Positions 36,389 to 60,644 are shown, counted from the first letter of the stretch. The stretch is 64,000 nucleotides of DNA from an uncultured virus (IMG/VR IMGVR_UViG_3300032296_001854) (IMGVR_UViG_3300032296_001854), one strand, 5' to 3'. Notes: generated from the letters alone by a model not told the origin. Translations and numbers: made by a program.

Positions 36389-36927
36389 TTATTGGACTCA
36401 CTGGTTACGCACAGTCAGGCAAGGACACTCTTGCAAACATCCTTGTTGAAAAATATGCATTTAAACGCATAGCCTTTGCAGACCCTATACGTGAGTTCTG
36501 TTATGCCATGAATCCTGTAGTAGGTCATGTAGCTAATGAAGAAACAATATTAAGACAGCTAGTAGACCGAGTAGGTTGGGACGAGGCTAAGCAATACGGC
36601 GGGGTACGCCGTCTATTGCAGAACGTGGGCATTGCTGCACGTGAAGTATTTGGTGAACAGTTTTGGGTAGCACAGGCTTTAAGAAACGTGCACTTTACAG
36701 AAAACGTTGTTATTACAGATGTTAGGTTTCTTAATGAAGCAAATGCTATTAAACAATACGACGATGCACAGATATGGAGAGTCAAACGTCCTGGGTTTGG
36801 CCCAGTAAACGAGCACGTCTCTGAGTCTGAAATGGCAGATTACAAAGCAGACCAGATTTTTTATAATGCTGGGACTTTAGAAGATTTAAAAGTGTTGGTA
36901 AACACTCGCATGAGAGCGTACGTTTAA
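36385..36927 (+). CDS. Deoxynucleoside monophosphate kinase
   Basis: 'IIGLTGYAQSGKDT', 'FADP', 'RRLLQ', 'ITDVRF.NE', 'HVSE'. Confidence 0.9.
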   Translation: MIIGLTGYAQSGKDTLANILVEKYAFKRIAFADPIREFCYAMNPVVGHVANEETILRQLVDRVGWDEAKQYGGVRRLLQNVGIAAREVFGEQFWVAQALRNVHFTENVVITDVRFLNEANAIKQYDDAQIWRVKRPGFGPVNEHVSESEMADYKADQIFYNAGTLEDLKVLVNTRMRAYV

Positions 36928-37160
36928 TGCAGTATTGGTCATGGGTATTAGCAATCATTGGGGTTGCTGGCATCTACTTTGTAGGTCGTAAGACTATTTG
37001 GGGATGGCTAGTCCTATTGTTTAATGAGGGTTTGTGGATTACTTACGCTTTGATTACGGACCAGTACGGATTCATATTTTCCGCCCTTGCCTACGCTATT
37101 GTTTATATAAGGTCTTACGTACATTGGTCTAAAGATAAAGTTAACGAGATACCTCTGTGA
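36927..37160 (+). CDS. Three-helix membrane protein, PnuC-like half transporter
   Basis: W-rich 3-TM pattern 'GIYFVGRKTIWGW...LWITYA...Y..W'. Confidence 0.55.
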   Translation: MQYWSWVLAIIGVAGIYFVGRKTIWGWLVLLFNEGLWITYALITDQYGFIFSALAYAIVYIRSYVHWSKDKVNEIPL

Positions 37161-38746
37161 CATTCACTGGCTCCCTTCTTCCCTATCAACCTGAGGCAGT
37201 TGACAAAATGTGCCTTCGTAAGCGCATGTTGGTTGCCTACGACCTTGGGTTAGGCAAAACAGTTATTACTATTGCAGCCATAGAACGTTTGATGGATGAG
37301 AACAAAGTAACTGAGCCAGGCCTTATAATTTGCCTGTCTTCCCTAAAATACCAATGGGCTGGACAGATAGAGAAATTTACTGATGGAACTTCACGAGCTT
37401 TGGTTGTGGATGGAACGCCGAAGAAAAGAGCAGAGCAATATGCTCAAGCCCAAGACTGGCGTAACACAGGGATTGATTACATCATTCTTAACTACGAGCA
37501 GATTGTTAACGACTGGGACTATATCAAGGAGCTACCAAGAGGATTTGTCGTCCTTGACGAAGCCACAGCAATCAAATCTTTTAAGTCCAAACGCTCAAGA
37601 GCAGTCAAGAAGCTTGTCAACGCCCCGTACCGTTTTGCACTCACAGGTACTCCTATTGAGAATGGCAAGCCAGAAGAGTTGTATAGCATTATGCAATTCG
37701 TTGACTCCAACGTACTTGGTAGGTTTGACATCTTTGACGCCGCTTTTATCGTAAGAAACTCTTGGGGCGCACCACAGTACTACCGTAATTTAAAAACTCT
37801 TCACGAAAAGATGAAAGAAGCATCTGTTCGTAAAGCACAGAAAGACGAAGACGTCGCTCCTTATCTTCCAGACACAATCCATAAAGACCCAATAAATATA
37901 TTCTTTGACCGAAAGTCTTCTAAGTTATACAGACGTATAGTTGAAGATTTGTTGTCAGATTTAGATGAAGCTCAAGATTTGTTTGGCAGTAACTTTAATA
38001 TTATGGCTCACTACGGCATGGAGTCTAGACGCGGTGGTCCAGAGGATGAGATGCGTGGCAAGATTATGTCTAAGATTGGCGCTCTTAAGATGCTGTGCTC
38101 TCACCCAGACTTGTTAAAGGCTAGCGCTGCTAAATTTAGAATGATGGGAGGCGAGGGTTCAGCATACATAGCTGAGCTTGTCGATAACGGTTTTCTAGAT
38201 GAGATTACTAGTTCTCCAAAATTAGATTACTTAATTCAATATGTAAAGGACCACCTAGAGCAAGATGACAACAACAAGGTGGTTATTTTTGCTACCTATG
38301 TTGACATGCTTGATAAGATAGTCGCAGCACTCGGCGAAGACATGTGCAGAAAGTACTCAGGTAAACTAGATGCTCGTACTAAAGAACTTAACAAAACTGA
38401 CTTCAATACTAATCCCGCTGTACGCGTACTGGTTAGTTCTGACGCTGGGGGTTACGGTGTGGACCTTCCTGCTGCTAATATGCTTATCAATTACGACCTC
38501 CCTTGGTCTTCAGGCAGCGCAACGCAAAGGAATGGCCGCATACAAAGAGCGTCATCTACCTGGCCAACAATAGTTATTCAAGACATTATCGTTTCTGGTT
38601 CTATAGAAGAAAGACAACACGAAGCTTTGCAACAAAAGAGCGCGGTAGCAAGCGCGGTAATTGATGGAGAGGGGTTTGACGATAACGGTAACATGCCGTT
38701 AAGCGTTGGAAGTTTAAGACAGTTTTTACAAGCAGCAATTGTCTAG
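37157..38746 (+). CDS. SNF2/SWI2-family helicase
   Basis: 'DLGLGKT', 'LDEAT', 'LTGTPIEN', 'GGYGVDL', 'QRNGRIQR'. Confidence 0.93.
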   Translation: MTFTGSLLPYQPEAVDKMCLRKRMLVAYDLGLGKTVITIAAIERLMDENKVTEPGLIICLSSLKYQWAGQIEKFTDGTSRALVVDGTPKKRAEQYAQAQDWRNTGIDYIILNYEQIVNDWDYIKELPRGFVVLDEATAIKSFKSKRSRAVKKLVNAPYRFALTGTPIENGKPEELYSIMQFVDSNVLGRFDIFDAAFIVRNSWGAPQYYRNLKTLHEKMKEASVRKAQKDEDVAPYLPDTIHKDPINIFFDRKSSKLYRRIVEDLLSDLDEAQDLFGSNFNIMAHYGMESRRGGPEDEMRGKIMSKIGALKMLCSHPDLLKASAAKFRMMGGEGSAYIAELVDNGFLDEITSSPKLDYLIQYVKDHLEQDDNNKVVIFATYVDMLDKIVAALGEDMCRKYSGKLDARTKELNKTDFNTNPAVRVLVSSDAGGYGVDLPAANMLINYDLPWSSGSATQRNGRIQRASSTWPTIVIQDIIVSGSIEERQHEALQQKSAVASAVIDGEGFDDNGNMPLSVGSLRQFLQAAIV

Positions 38747-38812
38747 TAGCTCAGTTGGCAGAGCAGGCGACTGTTAATCGCCAGGTCCCTGGTTCGAGCC
38801 CAGGCTAGACAG
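38740..38812 (+). tRNA. tRNA-Asn(GTT)
   Basis: Acceptor tgtctag/ctagaca, anticodon arm ggcga-ctGTTaa-tcgcc, T loop ttcgagc. No encoded CCA. Confidence 0.93.
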
Positions 38813-38816
38813 CTTT

Positions 38817-38889
38817 GCGGATGTAGCGCAGTTGGTAGCGCGGAACCTTGCCAAGGTTCAGGTCGCGGGTTCGACCCCCGTCATCCGCT
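38817..38889 (+). tRNA. tRNA-Gly(GCC)
   Basis: Acceptor gcggatg/catccgc, anticodon arm gaacc-ttGCCaa-ggttc, T loop ttcgacc. No CCA. Confidence 0.95.
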
Positions 38890-38890
38890 C

Positions 38891-39478
38891 GTGGTTAGAC
38901 TAAACAGGATATATACCAAGACTGGTGATACAGGCACGGCCGCACTTATGGGCGATGGCCGCCATCCCAAAGAAGATATTATCTTTGATGCAATTGGCAC
39001 AGTAGACGAAGCTAACTCTTCTATTGGTGTTGCTATGTGTTATGTAGAAAACAAAGATGTACATAAAGTATTAAAAAATGTACAGAATGATTTATTTGAT
39101 TTAGGTGCTGACCTAGCGTATCCAAAAGCTTCTGTAACTGAAGCACATATTACTTATCTTGAAACCACTATAGATTTTTATAACTCTCAGCTAAAACCTT
39201 TAGAGTCATTTGTTTTACCTTCAGGCACCCAGGCTTCGTCCTACCTACATCTTTCTAGAACAATAGTACGAAGAGCCGAGAGGGACGTGTGGGATGCCGT
39301 AAAACAGCGGGAGACCAACCCCCTCATAGCCAAGTACCTTAATAGGCTTTCAGACCTGCTATTTGTCCTAGCTAGATACATGAATCACGGGGACGATATA
39401 CTGTGGGAACCAGCAGTAAAACTATTGGCAGATGGTGTAATTGGCAACACGCCTGGCTCTGAACCAGGAGACGTCTAG
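38891..39478 (+). CDS. pduO: ATP:cob(I)alamin adenosyltransferase, PduO/MMAB type
   Basis: 'IYTKTGD.G', 'GTVDEANS.IG', 'QNDLFDLGADL', 'FVLPSG', 'RTIVRRAER', 'YLNRLSDLLFVLAR'. Confidence 0.95.
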   Translation: MVRLNRIYTKTGDTGTAALMGDGRHPKEDIIFDAIGTVDEANSSIGVAMCYVENKDVHKVLKNVQNDLFDLGADLAYPKASVTEAHITYLETTIDFYNSQLKPLESFVLPSGTQASSYLHLSRTIVRRAERDVWDAVKQRETNPLIAKYLNRLSDLLFVLARYMNHGDDILWEPAVKLLADGVIGNTPGSEPGDV

Positions 39479-39499
39479 GTTCGACCCCTAGTCTGCCAG
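39426..39499 (+). tRNA. tRNA-Gln(CTG)
   Basis: Acceptor tggcaga/tctgcca, anticodon arm cctgg-ctCTGaa-ccagg, T arm ctagg-ttcgacc-cctag. No CCA. Confidence 0.9.
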
Positions 39500-39541
39500 C
39501 TTTACACCCAACAATTATTGTTGGGCGGGTACACTTATAGG

Positions 39542-39688
39542 ATGCCTAACGCACCTAAGACCCCAACGCGTACTATCCGCGTGTCAGACCAGCTATGGAC
39601 CGCTGTCCAAAAGAAAGCTGCAGCTGAGAAGGTTACTGTAACCAGTATTATTATTGAAGCCTTAGAAAACTATATTAAAGAAGACTAA
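39542..39688 (+). CDS. Ribbon-helix-helix DNA-binding protein, 48 aa (not in ORF track)
   Basis: MPNAPKTPTRTIRVSDQLWTAVQKKAAAEKVTVTSIIIEALENYIKED; leaderless TACACT-N6-ATG. Confidence 0.8.
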   Translation: MPNAPKTPTRTIRVSDQLWTAVQKKAAAEKVTVTSIIIEALENYIKED

Positions 39689-39692
39689 TCAA

Positions 39693-39848
39693 ATGGGAAA
39701 ACACCACGATAAGGTTGCCGCTGCTTTGAAGTGGCGTCAAGAGACCATGCCTAAGGGCAGTGGTTTTAAGAAGCCTGGGTCTATGAACCCACGCAAGACT
39801 GGGTTCCGCAGTTATACAGCAGCAGAAGCTCGTAAAAAGATAGGTTGA
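39693..39848 (+). CDS. Small basic hypothetical protein, 51 aa (not in ORF track)
   Basis: MGKHHDKVAAALKWRQETMPKGSGFKKPGSMNPRKTGFRSYTAAEARKKIG fills the gap between neighbours. Confidence 0.6.
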   Translation: MGKHHDKVAAALKWRQETMPKGSGFKKPGSMNPRKTGFRSYTAAEARKKIG

Positions 39849-39874
39849 CAAGTATCCAAACCCTGTAATAGGTT
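39845..39874 (+). promoter_or_regulatory. SigA-type promoter
   Basis: TTGACA-N18-TAGGTT upstream of SD AAAGGGG and ATG 39905. Confidence 0.65.
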
Positions 39875-39904
39875 GTGTATGTAAACAACAACCAAAGGGG
39901 ATTT

Positions 39905-40315
39905 ATGGATATCACCTCAGTACGCGGCTACATTAAGCAGTACTCTGCTATTAAAGATGAAGTCGAAACATTAACTAAAAGACAATCAGAACTAAAGTCT
40001 CGTCTTACACAGACGATTGATGAATATGGTTCAGCCGACGAACGCGGTCACATCGTTCTTTCCGTCCCAACCGATACATCGGAAGAAGACGACCTAACAA
40101 TTATGAAGCAACGTCGTGTGTCTAAGAATTTAGACATGGACCTTGCTGAAACTATTTTAACTAAAAAAGGTCTCAAAGATAAATGCATCAAGATGGTGCC
40201 ACAGATAGATGAAGCAGCAATCATGGCCGCTTTCTATGAGGGCTATCTCACGGAAGAGGATATTGATACAATGTTTCCCTCAAAGGTTACATACGCGTTT
40301 ATCGTAGGGAAATAA
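39905..40315 (+). CDS. Hypothetical protein with N-terminal coiled coil
   Basis: SD AAAGGGG; ORF in frame with the track's 39875 call. Confidence 0.7.
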   Translation: MDITSVRGYIKQYSAIKDEVETLTKRQSELKSRLTQTIDEYGSADERGHIVLSVPTDTSEEDDLTIMKQRRVSKNLDMDLAETILTKKGLKDKCIKMVPQIDEAAIMAAFYEGYLTEEDIDTMFPSKVTYAFIVGK

Positions 40316-40329
40316 CTGTTAAAGCTACT

Positions 40330-40803
40330 ATGACAGATGAAATAGATAAGATGTTTTCTGACTTGGATACATACTATCCAGGCAGTAAACGAAAGCGCAG
40401 GGAACCAAAAGCTCCCGAGGTAGAAGTTGACGATACGTGGGAATCAAAGTCCTACACTAAGACTCTACCTAATGGTAAGGACATGGAGTTCTATACCATT
40501 GGCGCTCTCGCTCAAGCGTTAGGACGACCAGTGATTACTATCCGTCAATGGATAAAGTCAGGTTACCTACCGCCATCACCATACAGGCTTCCTACAAAGA
40601 AGAATGTAAAGGGAGAAGACCACAAGGGTCGCAGACTATATTCTAAAGCTCAGATTGATAGCGTGGTAGAATTGTTTAAGGTCGCTGGCGTTTTGCACGT
40701 GAAGCGAATACAGTGGCCTAATCAGCAATTGACTAACGCAATCGCTGAGGCTTGGAAGAATATCCAAGTCGAAGACTCTAAAACAACTGAAACAAAGGAA
40801 TAG
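40330..40803 (+). CDS. MerR-like HTH DNA-binding protein
   Basis: 'YTIGALAQALGRPVITIRQWIKSGYLP...RRLYS'. Confidence 0.8.
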   Translation: MTDEIDKMFSDLDTYYPGSKRKRREPKAPEVEVDDTWESKSYTKTLPNGKDMEFYTIGALAQALGRPVITIRQWIKSGYLPPSPYRLPTKKNVKGEDHKGRRLYSKAQIDSVVELFKVAGVLHVKRIQWPNQQLTNAIAEAWKNIQVEDSKTTETKE

Positions 40804-45385: not shown

Positions 45386-45716
45386 AGGACAAAGGGAGTC
45401 GAAGAAACACGAGGACCGATTAGCAAAAGCAATTGGTGGTCAGCGTAATGCTGGCAGCGGTGCGTTTTGGAGTCGGAAGGGTGATGTTCGGTCTAAAGAC
45501 TTGTTAATAGAACACAAGTGGACTGGCAAAGCCACCGTGACTATCAAGGCCACGGTTCTAGAGAAGATTGTTAAGGAAGCAATCCTTGACAGTCGCACTC
45601 CAGTACTCGGTTTCAGTCTCAACGATGAAAACTATGTGATGTTACTGGAGGACGATTTTCTAGAACTACGCCAGAAAACTTTGGAGTGTAGTTGTTCGAA
45701 GATATCGGCCACTTAG
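45375..45716 (+). CDS. PD-(D/E)xK nuclease, Holliday junction resolvase-like
   Basis: 'HEDRLAK...GSGA...KGDV...LIEHK'. Confidence 0.7.
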   Translation: MKSKGQRESKKHEDRLAKAIGGQRNAGSGAFWSRKGDVRSKDLLIEHKWTGKATVTIKATVLEKIVKEAILDSRTPVLGFSLNDENYVMLLEDDFLELRQKTLECSCSKISAT

Positions 45717-46009
45717 AAGGTTGGCGACATCAAGCCAAGTGTCGGGGGATGGACACAGAGCTTTGGTTTCCTCCTAGAGATAAAGCCAAATATAAAAAAA
45801 TTGCATCCGTATCTAAAGCTGTCTGCTTTGGACGTGATGGCTTACCTGAATGCCCAGTGCGTAAGGAATGTTTGCTGTATGCAGAAGCACAAGAAGAACA
45901 ACACGGTATATGGGGTGGCATGTCGCATCGTGAGCGTAATGCGCTTAAGCGTAAAGCAAAGAAGCACGGCAAAACCCTAGAGGAGTGGATACTTGACGGA
46001 GACCTGTGA
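45692..46009 (+). CDS. whiB: WhiB-family Fe-S transcription factor
   Basis: 'W...AKC...D.ELWFP', 'C...CPVRKECL.YA', 'GIWGGMS.RER'. Confidence 0.93.
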   Translation: MFEDIGHLEGWRHQAKCRGMDTELWFPPRDKAKYKKIASVSKAVCFGRDGLPECPVRKECLLYAEAQEEQHGIWGGMSHRERNALKRKAKKHGKTLEEWILDGDL

Positions 46010-58616: not shown

Positions 58617-60644
58617 ATGGCACTGAGTTTCCGACTAACAGAAGAATTCCTAAAGGATTACCGCAGTAAGAAAGTACCTTGGGGTTATAAAGATGCGGCG
58701 GGCAACTCGGTGGGTGAGATTACTTTCCTTAGAACATACTCCCGACTAAAAGAGGACGGAACCAAAGAGACTTGGGTGGATGTATGCCAGCGAGTAATCG
58801 AGGGCATGTATTCCCTACAAAAAGACCACTGCAAAACCAATCGTCTACCTTGGAATGACAGCAGAGCTCAAGCCTCGGCTAAGGAAGCCTTTGACCGTTT
58901 ATTTAATTTAAAGTGGACACCCCCAGGACGAGGTCTATGGGTTATGGGAACACCACTGGTCAACGAGCAGAAAAACTCCGCGGCTTTACAGAACTGTGCC
59001 TTTGTGTCTACCTCTAGTATGACTAAGTTGGACCCCGCTAAACCGTTTGCTTTCCTCATGGAAGCATCAATGTTGGGCGTTGGAGTCGGATTTGATGACA
59101 AGGGTGCAGACAAGGACTTTTTGATTTACGAGCCAAAACTGCCTGAGGTCACAATCCAGATTCCAGATACCAGGGAGGGATGGGTTGAGTCAGTAAGTAC
59201 CCTGATTAACTCCTACTTAAAACCAGAACAGCCTATTTATGTATTTGATTATTCTTTAATTAGACCAGCGGGTACCCCCATCAAAACCTTTGGCGGCACA
59301 GCTGCGGGCCATGAACCTCTAGAGAAGCTCCACAATCACGTGCGACGCATCTTTAATAAAAAGAAGGCGGGTTCTAAATTAACAAGAGTAGATATAGCAG
59401 ATTTGGGTAATCTAATTGGAGTCTGCGTTGTATCTGGCAATGTCCGCCGCAGTGCTGAGCTGTTAATGGGCCGACTCGATGACCAAGACTTTTTAAATTT
59501 AAAGAACGCAAAGGCTTTCCCTGAGCGCAACTCATACGAAGCTGCAGCTCCTGGCTGGGCCTGGATGTCTAACAACTCTGTAGAAGTATCTGTGGGTTCT
59601 AAATTAGACCACATAGTTGAGGGTATTGCCTTAAACGGTGAGCCTGGTGTTATCTGGATGGATGTTACTCGTCAGTATGGCCGACTTATAGACCCAATCA
59701 ACAATAAAGACCATCGAGCTGCTGGGTACAATCCGTGCGCTGAACAATCGCTAGAATCTTTTGAGTGCTGTACTCTGGTTGAAACTTACCTCAATCGCCA
59801 TGAATCTAAAGAAGATTACCTGCGTACTCTAAAGTTTGCCTATCTCTATGCAAAGACCGTCACATTGCTTCCTACCCACTGGGAAGAAACTAACGCAATC
59901 ATGCAACGAAATCGTCGTATTGGAACCTCTATGTCTGGAGTGGCTAACTTTGCTGACCGCGTAGGTATGCCTGAACTTCGTGAGTGGATGGACGAGGGGT
60001 ATAAAACAATTCAAGACTACGACCGCACATACTCAGAGTGGCTTGGCATTCGAGAATCAATTAAAACTACCACTGTTAAGCCTAGCGGTACCGTTTCTAT
60101 ATTAGCGGGAGAATCTCCTGGGGTTCACTGGACTCCTGGCGGCAAATACTTCCTACGTGCAATCCGTTTCTCTAATGAAGACCCAATGTTACCTTTATTT
60201 AAAGCGTCGGGTTATAAAATAGAAAAGGCTTCCGAATCTCCCAAGACAACTAGCGTCGTTTACTTCCCCATCAAATCAGAGGCGCTACGGTCAGAGAAAG
60301 ATGTTTCAATCTATGAAAAGATGTCGCTTGCGGCTACTGCACAGCGATATTGGTCAGACAACAGCGTCAGCGTTACAGTATCCTTTAATGCAAATACTGA
60401 AAAAGACGCCGTAGGAACAGTTCTACACATGTTTGACGGGCAACTCAAAACCGTTTCCTTTTTACCAATGGGGAACGAGACTTACCCGCAAATGCCTTAC
60501 ACACAGATAACCGAAGCAGAATACGAAAAGTATGCCTTCAAGTTATTGCCTATTGACTTTGTTGACGTTTATGCAGGTATGGCCGCGGACGCAATAGGTG
60601 AAAAGTATTGTTCAACTGATTATTGCGAAATCCCACAACAATGA
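58617..60644 (+). CDS. nrdJ: Class II adenosylcobalamin-dependent ribonucleotide reductase (monomeric RTPR type)
   Basis: 'PPGRGLW', 'NCAF', 'GNVRRSA', 'NPCAEQ', 'TVKPSGTVS', C-terminal 'KYCSTDYC'. No nrdB/F gene in the window. Confidence 0.93.
   Translation: MALSFRLTEEFLKDYRSKKVPWGYKDAAGNSVGEITFLRTYSRLKEDGTKETWVDVCQRVIEGMYSLQKDHCKTNRLPWNDSRAQASAKEAFDRLFNLKWTPPGRGLWVMGTPLVNEQKNSAALQNCAFVSTSSMTKLDPAKPFAFLMEASMLGVGVGFDDKGADKDFLIYEPKLPEVTIQIPDTREGWVESVSTLINSYLKPEQPIYVFDYSLIRPAGTPIKTFGGTAAGHEPLEKLHNHVRRIFNKKKAGSKLTRVDIADLGNLIGVCVVSGNVRRSAELLMGRLDDQDFLNLKNAKAFPERNSYEAAAPGWAWMSNNSVEVSVGSKLDHIVEGIALNGEPGVIWMDVTRQYGRLIDPINNKDHRAAGYNPCAEQSLESFECCTLVETYLNRHESKEDYLRTLKFAYLYAKTVTLLPTHWEETNAIMQRNRRIGTSMSGVANFADRVGMPELREWMDEGYKTIQDYDRTYSEWLGIRESIKTTTVKPSGTVSILAGESPGVHWTPGGKYFLRAIRFSNEDPMLPLFKASGYKIEKASESPKTTSVVYFPIKSEALRSEKDVSIYEKMSLAATAQRYWSDNSVSVTVSFNANTEKDAVGTVLHMFDGQLKTVSFLPMGNETYPQMPYTQITEAEYEKYAFKLLPIDFVDVYAGMAADAIGEKYCSTDYCEIPQQ

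Follow-up and report, generated by a model that had tools for sequence, protein, structure and literature searches.

A pduO adenosyltransferase gene fitted between two tRNA genes of a probable freshwater actinophage

We analysed a 64,000-nucleotide stretch of DNA from an uncultured virus (IMG/VR IMGVR_UViG_3300032296_001854), hereafter called the window, with a focus on a gene for a pduO-type ATP:cob(I)alamin adenosyltransferase (38891..39478, plus strand) that starts one nucleotide after a tRNA-Gly gene and ends inside a tRNA-Gln gene. This arrangement is best explained if a freshwater actinophage captured pduO, an accessory metabolic gene, within its array of three tRNAs, leaving no intergenic DNA to its left or right. 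New here are a metabolic gene under selection that is joined to a tRNA at each end, an encoded CCA truncated by a start codon, and a tRNA module common to pduO and a homing nuclease. The most likely route of pduO expression, which we favour with modest confidence, is its release by tRNA 3' processing as a leaderless mRNA.

The pduO gene and its tRNA junctions

The boundaries of the three tRNA genes, all located on the same strand, were assigned by ARAGORN and the Rfam tRNA covariance model, which agreed with each other and with the coordinates proposed in an initial annotation of this DNA. On the plus strand, tRNA-Asn(GTT) occupies positions 38740-38812 with C74 at 38813 (Rfam score 65.5 bits), tRNA-Gly(GCC) 38817-38889 with C74 at 38890 (68.4 bits), and tRNA-Gln(CTG) 39426-39499 with C74 at 39500 (60.1 bits). 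At the 5' junction of pduO, the tRNA-Gly discriminator T38889 is followed by C38890 (C74) and then by the GTG start codon (38891-93), leaving a gap of 1 nt. At the 3' junction, the pduO homology stops and the tRNA starts at base 1 of tRNA-Gln; therefore, the gene appears to have lost its own stop codon and to have taken a TAG (39476-78) from the 5' arm of the T-stem, where it corresponds to bases 51-53 of the tRNA. The open reading frame (ORF) overlaps tRNA-Gln by 53 nt, with the TAG 50 nt inside it, and the portion within the tRNA comprises 16 whole codons and two bases of codon 179. Upstream of the array, a SNF2-family helicase gene (37157..38746, plus strand, 529 amino acids (aa); ORF call with the Pfam domains SNF2-rel_dom and Helicase_C) ends with a TAG at 38744-46, occupying bases 5-7 in the acceptor stem of tRNA-Asn. 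The first seven bases of this tRNA supply the last two codons of the helicase and its TAG; its acceptor stem reads TGTCTAG/CTAGACA, its discriminator is G38812 and its CA is not encoded. Both stop codons within tRNAs had been noted in the initial annotation and are plainly visible in the sequence. As in a tRNA-punctuated unit, the pduO coding sequence is bounded by same-strand tRNA genes without spacers; the stop codon is not retained in the excised mRNA, as excision at 39425/39426 removes the TAG.

The pduO ORF encodes 195 amino acids, of which residues 1-178 constitute the enzyme and residues 179-195 (LADGVIGNTPGSEPGDV), together with the TAG, are tRNA-Gln sequence. The Pfam family PF01923 (Cob_adeno_trans) matches residues 7-164 along its complete profile (positions 1-171 of 171; E 1.7e-56, 191.4 bits against a cut-off of 24), and the best PDB match is the Mycobacterium tuberculosis structure 2g2d (E 1.6e-40, residues 2-175). 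PHROGs has no family for the window PduO, a gap in that library. When the protein was aligned with 14 homologs, residues M1, V2, L4, I7, Y8, T9, G12, D13 and G15 were invariant and K10, T11 and T16 nearly invariant among the 15 sequences, the family consensus starting with MVxLTRIYTKTGD. The N-terminal segment IYTKTGDxGxT, which has a role in ATP binding in PduO-type enzymes, is present and is included in the alignment with 2g2d, which begins at residue 2. Because the residues listed above are invariant, GTG 38891 represents the first codon of the family; no further in-frame ATG, GTG or TTG lies upstream of it in the ORF. A start at the ATG of codon 20 was rejected, as the alignment indicates that it would remove the invariant N-terminus.

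The comparative data also bear on whether the layout is real. The initial annotation had raised the possibility that a sequencing error hides an earlier pduO stop. Both junctions and the same open frame, with no earlier stop, are found in 14 of 15 independent IMG/VR contigs, the 15th of which ends at its contig edge, and two of the loci (L003 and L004) are identical to the window throughout the region. The layout of coding sequences and tRNAs is not an assembly or sequencing artefact. Over the 178 enzyme codons, the ratio of nonsynonymous to synonymous substitution rates (dN/dS) is 0.090 at a dS of 1.16 between the window and L012, a member of a second pduO clade with 82% PduO identity, and the corresponding helicase value is 0.066. 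From these sequence comparisons, it is well supported that pduO is a working gene under strong purifying selection. An error concealing the true start or stop, or a decaying pduO remnant, is consequently refuted as an explanation and we consider either extremely improbable: an artefact would have had to recur in independent contigs, and a dead gene does not fit the low dN/dS, the full-length Pfam domain and the invariant N-terminus.

The C-terminus is the part of the protein that departs from its family. Homologs in the alignment terminate 4-14 residues past an LWxP motif. A further 33 distinct phage pduO genes were compared: in 32 of them the gene's own stop codon lies 2-14 residues past this motif, and the remaining one is cut by the end of its locus; an ATG occupies the aligned start position in 27, and none of the 33 is in contact with a tRNA. 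A 79% identical PduO of 185 aa (P0002) departs from the window protein exactly at the tRNA boundary and ends with ...LTINTKDM, thus about seven native codons and a stop seem to have been lost in the fusion. A 65% identical protein (P0003) likewise has its own C-terminus.

Insertion history and the tRNA-Gln allele

Two scans of IMG/VR yielded 136 loci, over all of which ARAGORN and tblastn were run. The states of the region were counted in 65 unique contigs that span from the helicase end to a downstream gene for an Arc-like ribbon-helix-helix (RHH) protein. Thirteen contigs have no tRNAs between these genes, 39 have an Asn-Gly-Gln array without pduO, and 13 have pduO between tRNA-Gly and tRNA-Gln. 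The arrays without pduO are mostly tight (33 of 39), with gaps of 0 nt between the helicase stop and tRNA-Asn, 3 nt between tRNA-Asn and tRNA-Gly, and 1 nt between tRNA-Gly and tRNA-Gln. In the others, inserts were found between tRNA-Gly and tRNA-Gln (503 nt, two arrays), between tRNA-Asn and tRNA-Gly (261 nt, two arrays) and before tRNA-Asn (188 nt, one array), and one array has a 47-nt insert. The position of pduO corresponds exactly to the 1-nt Gly-Gln spacer of the relatives.

Carriers of pduO form two clades with identical pduO junctions: that of the window, with 98-100% helicase identity, and another with 92% helicase and 82% PduO identity. A helicase tree of 63 rows, with a midpoint root used for drawing only, places the pduO carriers on one side of a branch with 100/99 support, nested among the array carriers and sister (96/86) to a clade with tight arrays; array carriers and tRNA-less phages are split at 100/98. 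Since both clades share the same junctions, the insertion is real, single and old (dS ~1.2), and the simplest history suggested by the sequences is a single gain of pduO in their common ancestor. The initial annotation had viewed the locus as a possible scar of a recent insertion into a tRNA array and had proposed a comparison with relatives lacking pduO. That comparison, with a tight Asn-Gly-Gln array in 33 contigs whose Gly-Gln spacer is 1 nt, strongly supports the insertion, whereas its recency is contradicted by the two diverged clades that share the gene.

The junctions have left traces in the neighbouring sequences. In relatives, the CCA of tRNA-Gly is encoded (..CCGCTCCA, 39 contigs), whereas in pduO carriers the sequence reads ..CCGCTC|GTGGTT (16 contigs) and the pduO start replaces the CA of the CCA. 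The 5' junction thus falls within the encoded CCA, of which the carriers retain only C74 ahead of the GTG; a tRNA-Gly allele nearly identical to that of the window, with its CCA, is present in L117. At the other end of the array, the helicase of relatives terminates with N-V-stop flush against tRNA-Asn, whereas that of the pduO clades terminates with I-V-stop at an unchanged length of 529 aa, and its last seven bases double as an altered tRNA-Asn acceptor strand (TGTCTAG), giving an overlap of 7 nt. Between the two pduO clades, tRNA-Gly differs at the stem pairs 6-67, 27-43 and 28-42, all of them compensatory, and at three unpaired positions; the compensatory changes imply that the tRNAs have been under selection since the insertion.

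Other sequences were also observed in the arrays of relatives. The 261-nt insert of L074 (6659-6919), found at the same place in L114, is non-coding and folds with -91.7 kcal/mol (z = -3.29; none of 200 shuffles was equally good). Its 3' end, overlapping tRNA-Gly, gives a sub-threshold match to YrlA (Y RNA-like; 23.1 bits against a gathering threshold of 69), and the insert possibly represents a stable small RNA encoded in the array. In L117 (6590-6748), a small ORF for a hydrophobic protein of 52 aa with its own Shine-Dalgarno (SD) sequence lies between the helicase stop and tRNA-Asn, and its stop codon is 5 nt before the tRNA.

The tRNA-Gln behind pduO is a foreign allele. Its acceptor stem reads TGGCAGA/TCTGCCA, while the resident alleles of the family are of the TCCCC... 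and TCTCC... types; in the window, the TGGCAG allele has taken the place of the resident-type tRNA-Gln. The resident tRNA-Gln is broken in six relatives (L126, L131, L137, L143, L145 and L156), and an HNH endonuclease is encoded at the same foreign allele in L126, L131, L137 and L145. The locus of L126 (1972-2573) begins with a decayed 5' copy of the resident tRNA-Gln (from 1972), followed by the HNH ORF of 159 aa (2047-2526), the TGGCAG-type tRNA-Gln (2474-2548) and a 3' fragment of the resident tRNA-Gln. The ORF was assigned to the HNH endonucleases by PHROGs (phrog_2255, E 3.2e-32), and Pfam detected no HNH family in it. It lacks its own stop codon, runs into tRNA-Gln in the frame that pduO also uses, and terminates with ...MADGVTGNTPGSGPGDF. 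The cassette occurs in two different backbones, and in each the 3' fragment agrees with the resident allele found locally. The cassette-free L125 and L132 have the same helicases as L126 and L131, respectively identical in sequence. The HNH cassette is a recent presence/absence polymorphism, as expected of homing.

Among viral_contigs, the TGGCAG type occurred at 20 loci, 14 of them behind pduO, six behind HNH and none with other stems. Among metagenome_contigs, the search returned 14 loci, of which three lie behind pduO, two behind HNH and nine have other acceptor stems; in four of these nine, a tRNA-Glu follows and the DNA is G+C-rich, and the D and anticodon arms are common to the window allele. 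No third context for the TGGCAG-stem allele was found in either set (20 and 14 loci). In the window, the ORF before tRNA-Gln is PduO, and not the nuclease of a homing-endonuclease-plus-tRNA cassette, although its stop comes from the following tRNA and the resident tRNA has been replaced, as in such a cassette. Large tRNA arrays of four further loci (L159, L166, L167 and L170) contain a tRNA-Gln(CTG) of 85-86 nt with the D and anticodon arms of the window; about 11 nt extra past the variable region (...GGTCACGC...) may represent a long variable arm or a small insertion.

The TGGCAG allele has three versions, whose differences are confined to loops (the D-loop, position 37 and a variable loop of differing length) and appear in the pduO ORF as I/T and E/G substitutions. 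The 82% clade has a deletion of 1 nt in the variable loop; the frame thereby passes the first TAG and stops at the second one, located in the 3' arm of the T-stem, giving a PduO of 199 aa that ends with ...GDSRFDP. To judge from these sequences, the PduO tail is a passenger that drifts freely, and the tRNAs are the constraint.

These patterns bear on the proposal, also made in the initial annotation, that the overlaps are a built-in expression limiter or timer, in which RNase P cleavage at tRNA-Gln and tRNA-Asn would yield non-stop mRNAs, tagging by transfer-messenger RNA (tmRNA) and low levels of PduO, or of HNH in relatives. In its favour, pduO and HNH are unrelated and both run without a stop into the same tRNA-Gln in the same frame, homing endonucleases are usually held at low levels, and the cut would fall one base past codon 178, near the ends of related enzymes. 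However, every frame of the window tRNA-Gln holds a stop, so the shared frame has a one-in-three chance of arising by coincidence. A limiter would make little sense for the replication helicase, which is laid out in this way in all relatives with an array, and the frameshift of the tail between clades gives no sign of selection. The essential helicase flush against tRNA-Asn and the drifting, frameshifting tail both point to tolerated packing; we find no support for selected limitation and regard it as improbable.

Expression signals and the route to a pduO message

No expression signal of its own was recognized for pduO, in agreement with the initial annotation. There is no TANNNT 6-7 nt before GTG 38891, where the bases read CGTCAT, CCGTCA or GTCATC, and no SD core upstream of it. 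A promoter scan of 36800-40400 returned eight promoter-like sites compared to 6.1 +/- 2.4 in shuffled sequences, none of them positioned for 38891. A primary leaderless promoter within tRNA-Gly was ruled out, given the lack of TANNNT. The start codon is 2 nt from the 7-bp, G+C-rich acceptor helix of tRNA-Gly, and the RNA fold of 38735-38960 is uninformative, being no more stable than shuffles (z = 0.19). With neither promoter nor SD, and with a start codon touching a stable tRNA helix, pduO is probably transcribed together with the tRNAs.

The RHH gene (39542-39688, plus strand; PHROG Arc-like repressor, E 8.7e-16, with a weak match to Pfam RHH_1) is an example of a leaderless start in this phage, which agrees with the tRNA-punctuation reading. 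A -10 box (TACACT, 39530-35, plus strand) is followed by six bases and then by ATG 39542, and in 64 of 67 contigs a TANNNT box is separated from the ATG by exactly 6 nt of variable sequence. By this pattern, the gene has a leaderless-type promoter, the signature of a primary leaderless transcript. ORF calling extends the gene to TTG 39518, which is probably wrong. Directly after tRNA-Gln, a hairpin (CCCAACAA-TTA-TTGTTGGG, 39507..39525, plus strand) has an outer stem (CCCAAC/GTTGGG) that is conserved in relatives, with variable inner bases; it may serve the helicase-tRNA-pduO unit as a terminator without a U-tract, act as an operator for the Arc-like repressor, or do both.

For pduO, we favour processing of the upstream tRNA as the source of the message. 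Cleavage after C74 by the host tRNA 3'-end endonuclease would produce a perfectly leaderless mRNA beginning with a 5'-monophosphate GUG, and the alternative cut after U73 would give CGUG, with a 1-nt leader. Actinobacterial ribosomes should be able to translate such a message. Differential RNA sequencing (dRNA-seq) of the actinobacterium Propionibacterium acnes offers a precedent: parts of that report (PMC3848588) describe endonucleolytic cuts close to most tRNA 3' ends, some of them within the CCA and then "always between the Cs", downstream products with a 5'-monophosphate, no obvious RNase Z homologue, and GUG as the start codon of 29% of leaderless mRNAs. For Streptomyces coelicolor, a part of another report gives 264 mRNAs whose leaders measure less than 10 nt (PMC4681348). 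In the phage family, position 74 is C in 59 of 59 tRNA-Asn, 55 of 55 tRNA-Gly and at least 47 of 54 tRNA-Gln genes, the seven non-C calls for tRNA-Gln being register ambiguities of the counting script in G-runs. Positions 75-76 vary freely, and the CA is not encoded in the tRNA-Asn and tRNA-Gln genes of the family. Its invariance argues that C74 is part of the functional tRNA or of a processing signal, and hints that the phage host trims these tRNAs after C74. At the other end, an RNase P cut at 39425/39426 would leave a non-stop message ending one base past codon 178, near the usual protein end of the family; as this cut removes the stop codon, full-length PduO would have to come from transcripts translated before it.

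Alternatively, the array may simply be tightly packed, with ordinary SD-independent internal initiation at an A/U-rich start on unprocessed polycistronic RNA and with the overlaps as neutral by-products. SD-less initiation is not rare in this phage, since 35 of the 77 window ORFs examined have no 4-nt SD core. Dense packing is also seen elsewhere: the helicase of 33 relatives is flush with tRNA-Asn, and four coding sequences in the coliphage T5 record end 6-24 nt into the next tRNA with no known regulatory meaning. However, most of the SD-less window ORFs overlap a preceding stop codon, which makes translational coupling possible for them but not for pduO, which comes after 144 nt of tRNA. The acceptor helix lies within the stretch that a 30S subunit must hold single-stranded, so binding to the unprocessed precursor should be hindered, and the T5 starts measured after tRNAs are 13-21 nt away, with room for an SD sequence. 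Assembled contigs from a freshwater RNA library (run X1) cover 38389-38852 and 38837-40380, the latter spanning tRNA-Gly, pduO, tRNA-Gln and the RHH gene. They fit a precursor that covers the helicase, the tRNAs, pduO, tRNA-Gln and the RHH gene, although contigs cannot prove a single transcript and may derive from DNA, and the longer one would equally suit internal initiation or an unprocessed precursor. High RNA depth over 38742-38875 reflects the tRNAs of other organisms, and RNA records that match 38837-38890 have 4-7 mismatches and continue into CCA and poly(A). On balance, we consider internal initiation possible though rather unlikely.

Several points weigh against the processing route and the interpretation built on it. 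A 1-nt leader, as expected from a cut after U73, lowers leaderless translation in the systems studied. If the host used a downstream cut followed by exonuclease trimming, the 5' end of pduO would be destroyed. The frequency of SD-less ORFs in the window makes the missing SD less distinctive, and the RNA-library contigs, which may be DNA, are unable to show 5' or 3' ends. A sigma-70-like site (TAGATA-18-TATACT, 39373-39402) lies inside the 3' end of pduO, 24 nt before tRNA-Gln, and could give this tRNA a transcript of its own, although the count of such sites is not significant relative to shuffles; its conservation is uninformative because the hexamers fall in conserved codons (LARY and DILW). 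The association of PduO with a phage enzyme that would use its product, described below, is one of co-occurrence only.

A more speculative extension of the processing route, which we put forward tentatively, treats the gap before tRNA-Gln as a "signal-free expression slot", in which an ORF would need no promoter, ribosome-binding site (RBS) or stop codon of its own to be expressed. Cleavage after C74 would expose the 5'-GUG and RNase P would end the message, so that tRNA maturation would activate the mRNA and also set the time of its loss. The slot would be used by HNH in some phages and here by a B12 enzyme serving a ribonucleotide reductase (RNR), as tRNA punctuation in the bacterial world within a domesticated homing-cassette slot. 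A literature search found no gene of a phage or bacterium whose message becomes leaderless through tRNA processing, which does not prove absence.

Phage context, cofactor supply and known systems

The window has a G+C content of ~44%, and 78 of its 90 candidate ORFs are on the plus strand. Pfam analysis of 77 ORFs identified genes of a contractile-tail phage (sheath, tube and baseplate), replication genes (DnaB, primase, PolA and RecA) and WhiB (45692-46006). The sequencing runs that contain window DNA are labelled as freshwater or lake metagenomes. The best cultured relatives of the helicase are from Streptomyces phages (37-38% identity), and no close cultured relative was found, a megablast search of 38000-40400 against the phage collection returning only a 52-nt match to tRNA-Asn. 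From these sequence features we read the window as an uncultured freshwater actinophage. The actinobacterial host assumed in the initial annotation is supported by WhiB, by the Streptomyces-phage-like replication genes and by the mycobacterial best PDB match of PduO. Just upstream of the helicase, a 77-aa ORF (36927-37157) gives a borderline match to a nicotinamide mononucleotide transporter (PF04973, 27.2 bits against a cut-off of 27.3).

A possible function for PduO is indicated by a class II (B12-dependent) RNR gene in the window (58617-60644, plus strand; Pfam RNR_Alpha and RNR-II_ins_dom). Class II RNR requires adenosylcobalamin, and on the basis of this co-occurrence PduO may supply the cofactor to the phage RNR. 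A homolog of the reductase is present in all five related records searched, four of which lack pduO, so that relatives manage without it. No work on phage pduO with RNR was found in the literature, which is again no proof of absence. The presence of both an adenosyltransferase and a B12-dependent RNR in one phage suggests that freshwater actinophages are limited at the step of cofactor supply.

If tRNA 3' processing does make a translatable 5' end, pduO would be a clear case of non-mitochondrial tRNA punctuation of a strongly selected protein gene, and phages would have a route for adding cargo genes to tRNA arrays without expression signals. The relatives provide an unusually clean natural comparison set, with no array, a tight array, pduO, or an HNH cassette at the same tRNA. 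For annotation, gene callers or curation rules that forbid overlaps between coding sequences and tRNAs would truncate or drop such genes. The HNH and tRNA-Gln cassette adds a case in which homing brings a replacement for the gene that it destroys.

The closest analogy for the layout is mitochondrial tRNA punctuation, reportedly described by Ojala, Montoya and Attardi in 1981. In both systems, a protein gene is directly flanked by same-strand tRNAs and has no spacer, promoter or RBS of its own, and tRNA excision, as predicted here, would set the mRNA ends and leave a leaderless message. In contrast to mitochondria, the window belongs to a bacterial virus in which one accessory gene, and not the whole genome, is punctuated. 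Its stop codon lies inside the downstream tRNA, where 5' processing of that tRNA removes it, and is not completed by polyadenylation.

Coliphage T5 (NC_005859) resembles the window in that hegC, hegD (HNH), T5.057 and T5.069 are the genes that end inside the next tRNA. hegD ends within tRNA-Gln(CUG), as the HNH ORF of the relatives does within the tRNA-Gln allele of the window, although the L126 HNH protein has no significant similarity to hegC or hegD. The window differs from T5 in that its ORF encodes a metabolic enzyme, the 53-nt overlap reaches the T-stem, and the start is 1 nt from the preceding tRNA instead of at the T5 distances given above. In phage T4, part of a published account (PMC2330249) describes SegB as a free-standing homing endonuclease from a tRNA cluster, which propagates itself and adjacent tRNA genes to the detriment of the recipient's tRNA region. 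The HNH and tRNA-Gln cassette of L126 and L131, present or absent and flanked by fragments of the resident tRNA-Gln, would be similar if it moves by homing; SegB, however, is a GIY-YIG enzyme, and in the window pduO fills the nuclease slot.

As an enzyme, the window PduO shares the full-length PF01923 domain and the N-terminal MVxLxRIYTKTGDxGT with M. tuberculosis Rv1314c (2g2d), Lactobacillus reuteri PduO (3ci1) and human MMAB (2idx). It is unlike them in its tRNA-encoded tail of 17 residues and its GTG start without a leader, and its gene is phage-borne with a class II RNR rather than located in a pdu, eut or cob operon. Finally, the cited passages of the P. acnes and S. coelicolor reports (PMC3848588, PMC4681348) describe no coding sequence that starts at a tRNA cleavage product, and P. 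acnes processing may differ from that of the phage host; what these systems have in common with the window is that a cut after C74, of the kind reported within the CCA of P. acnes tRNAs, would expose exactly the GUG of pduO.

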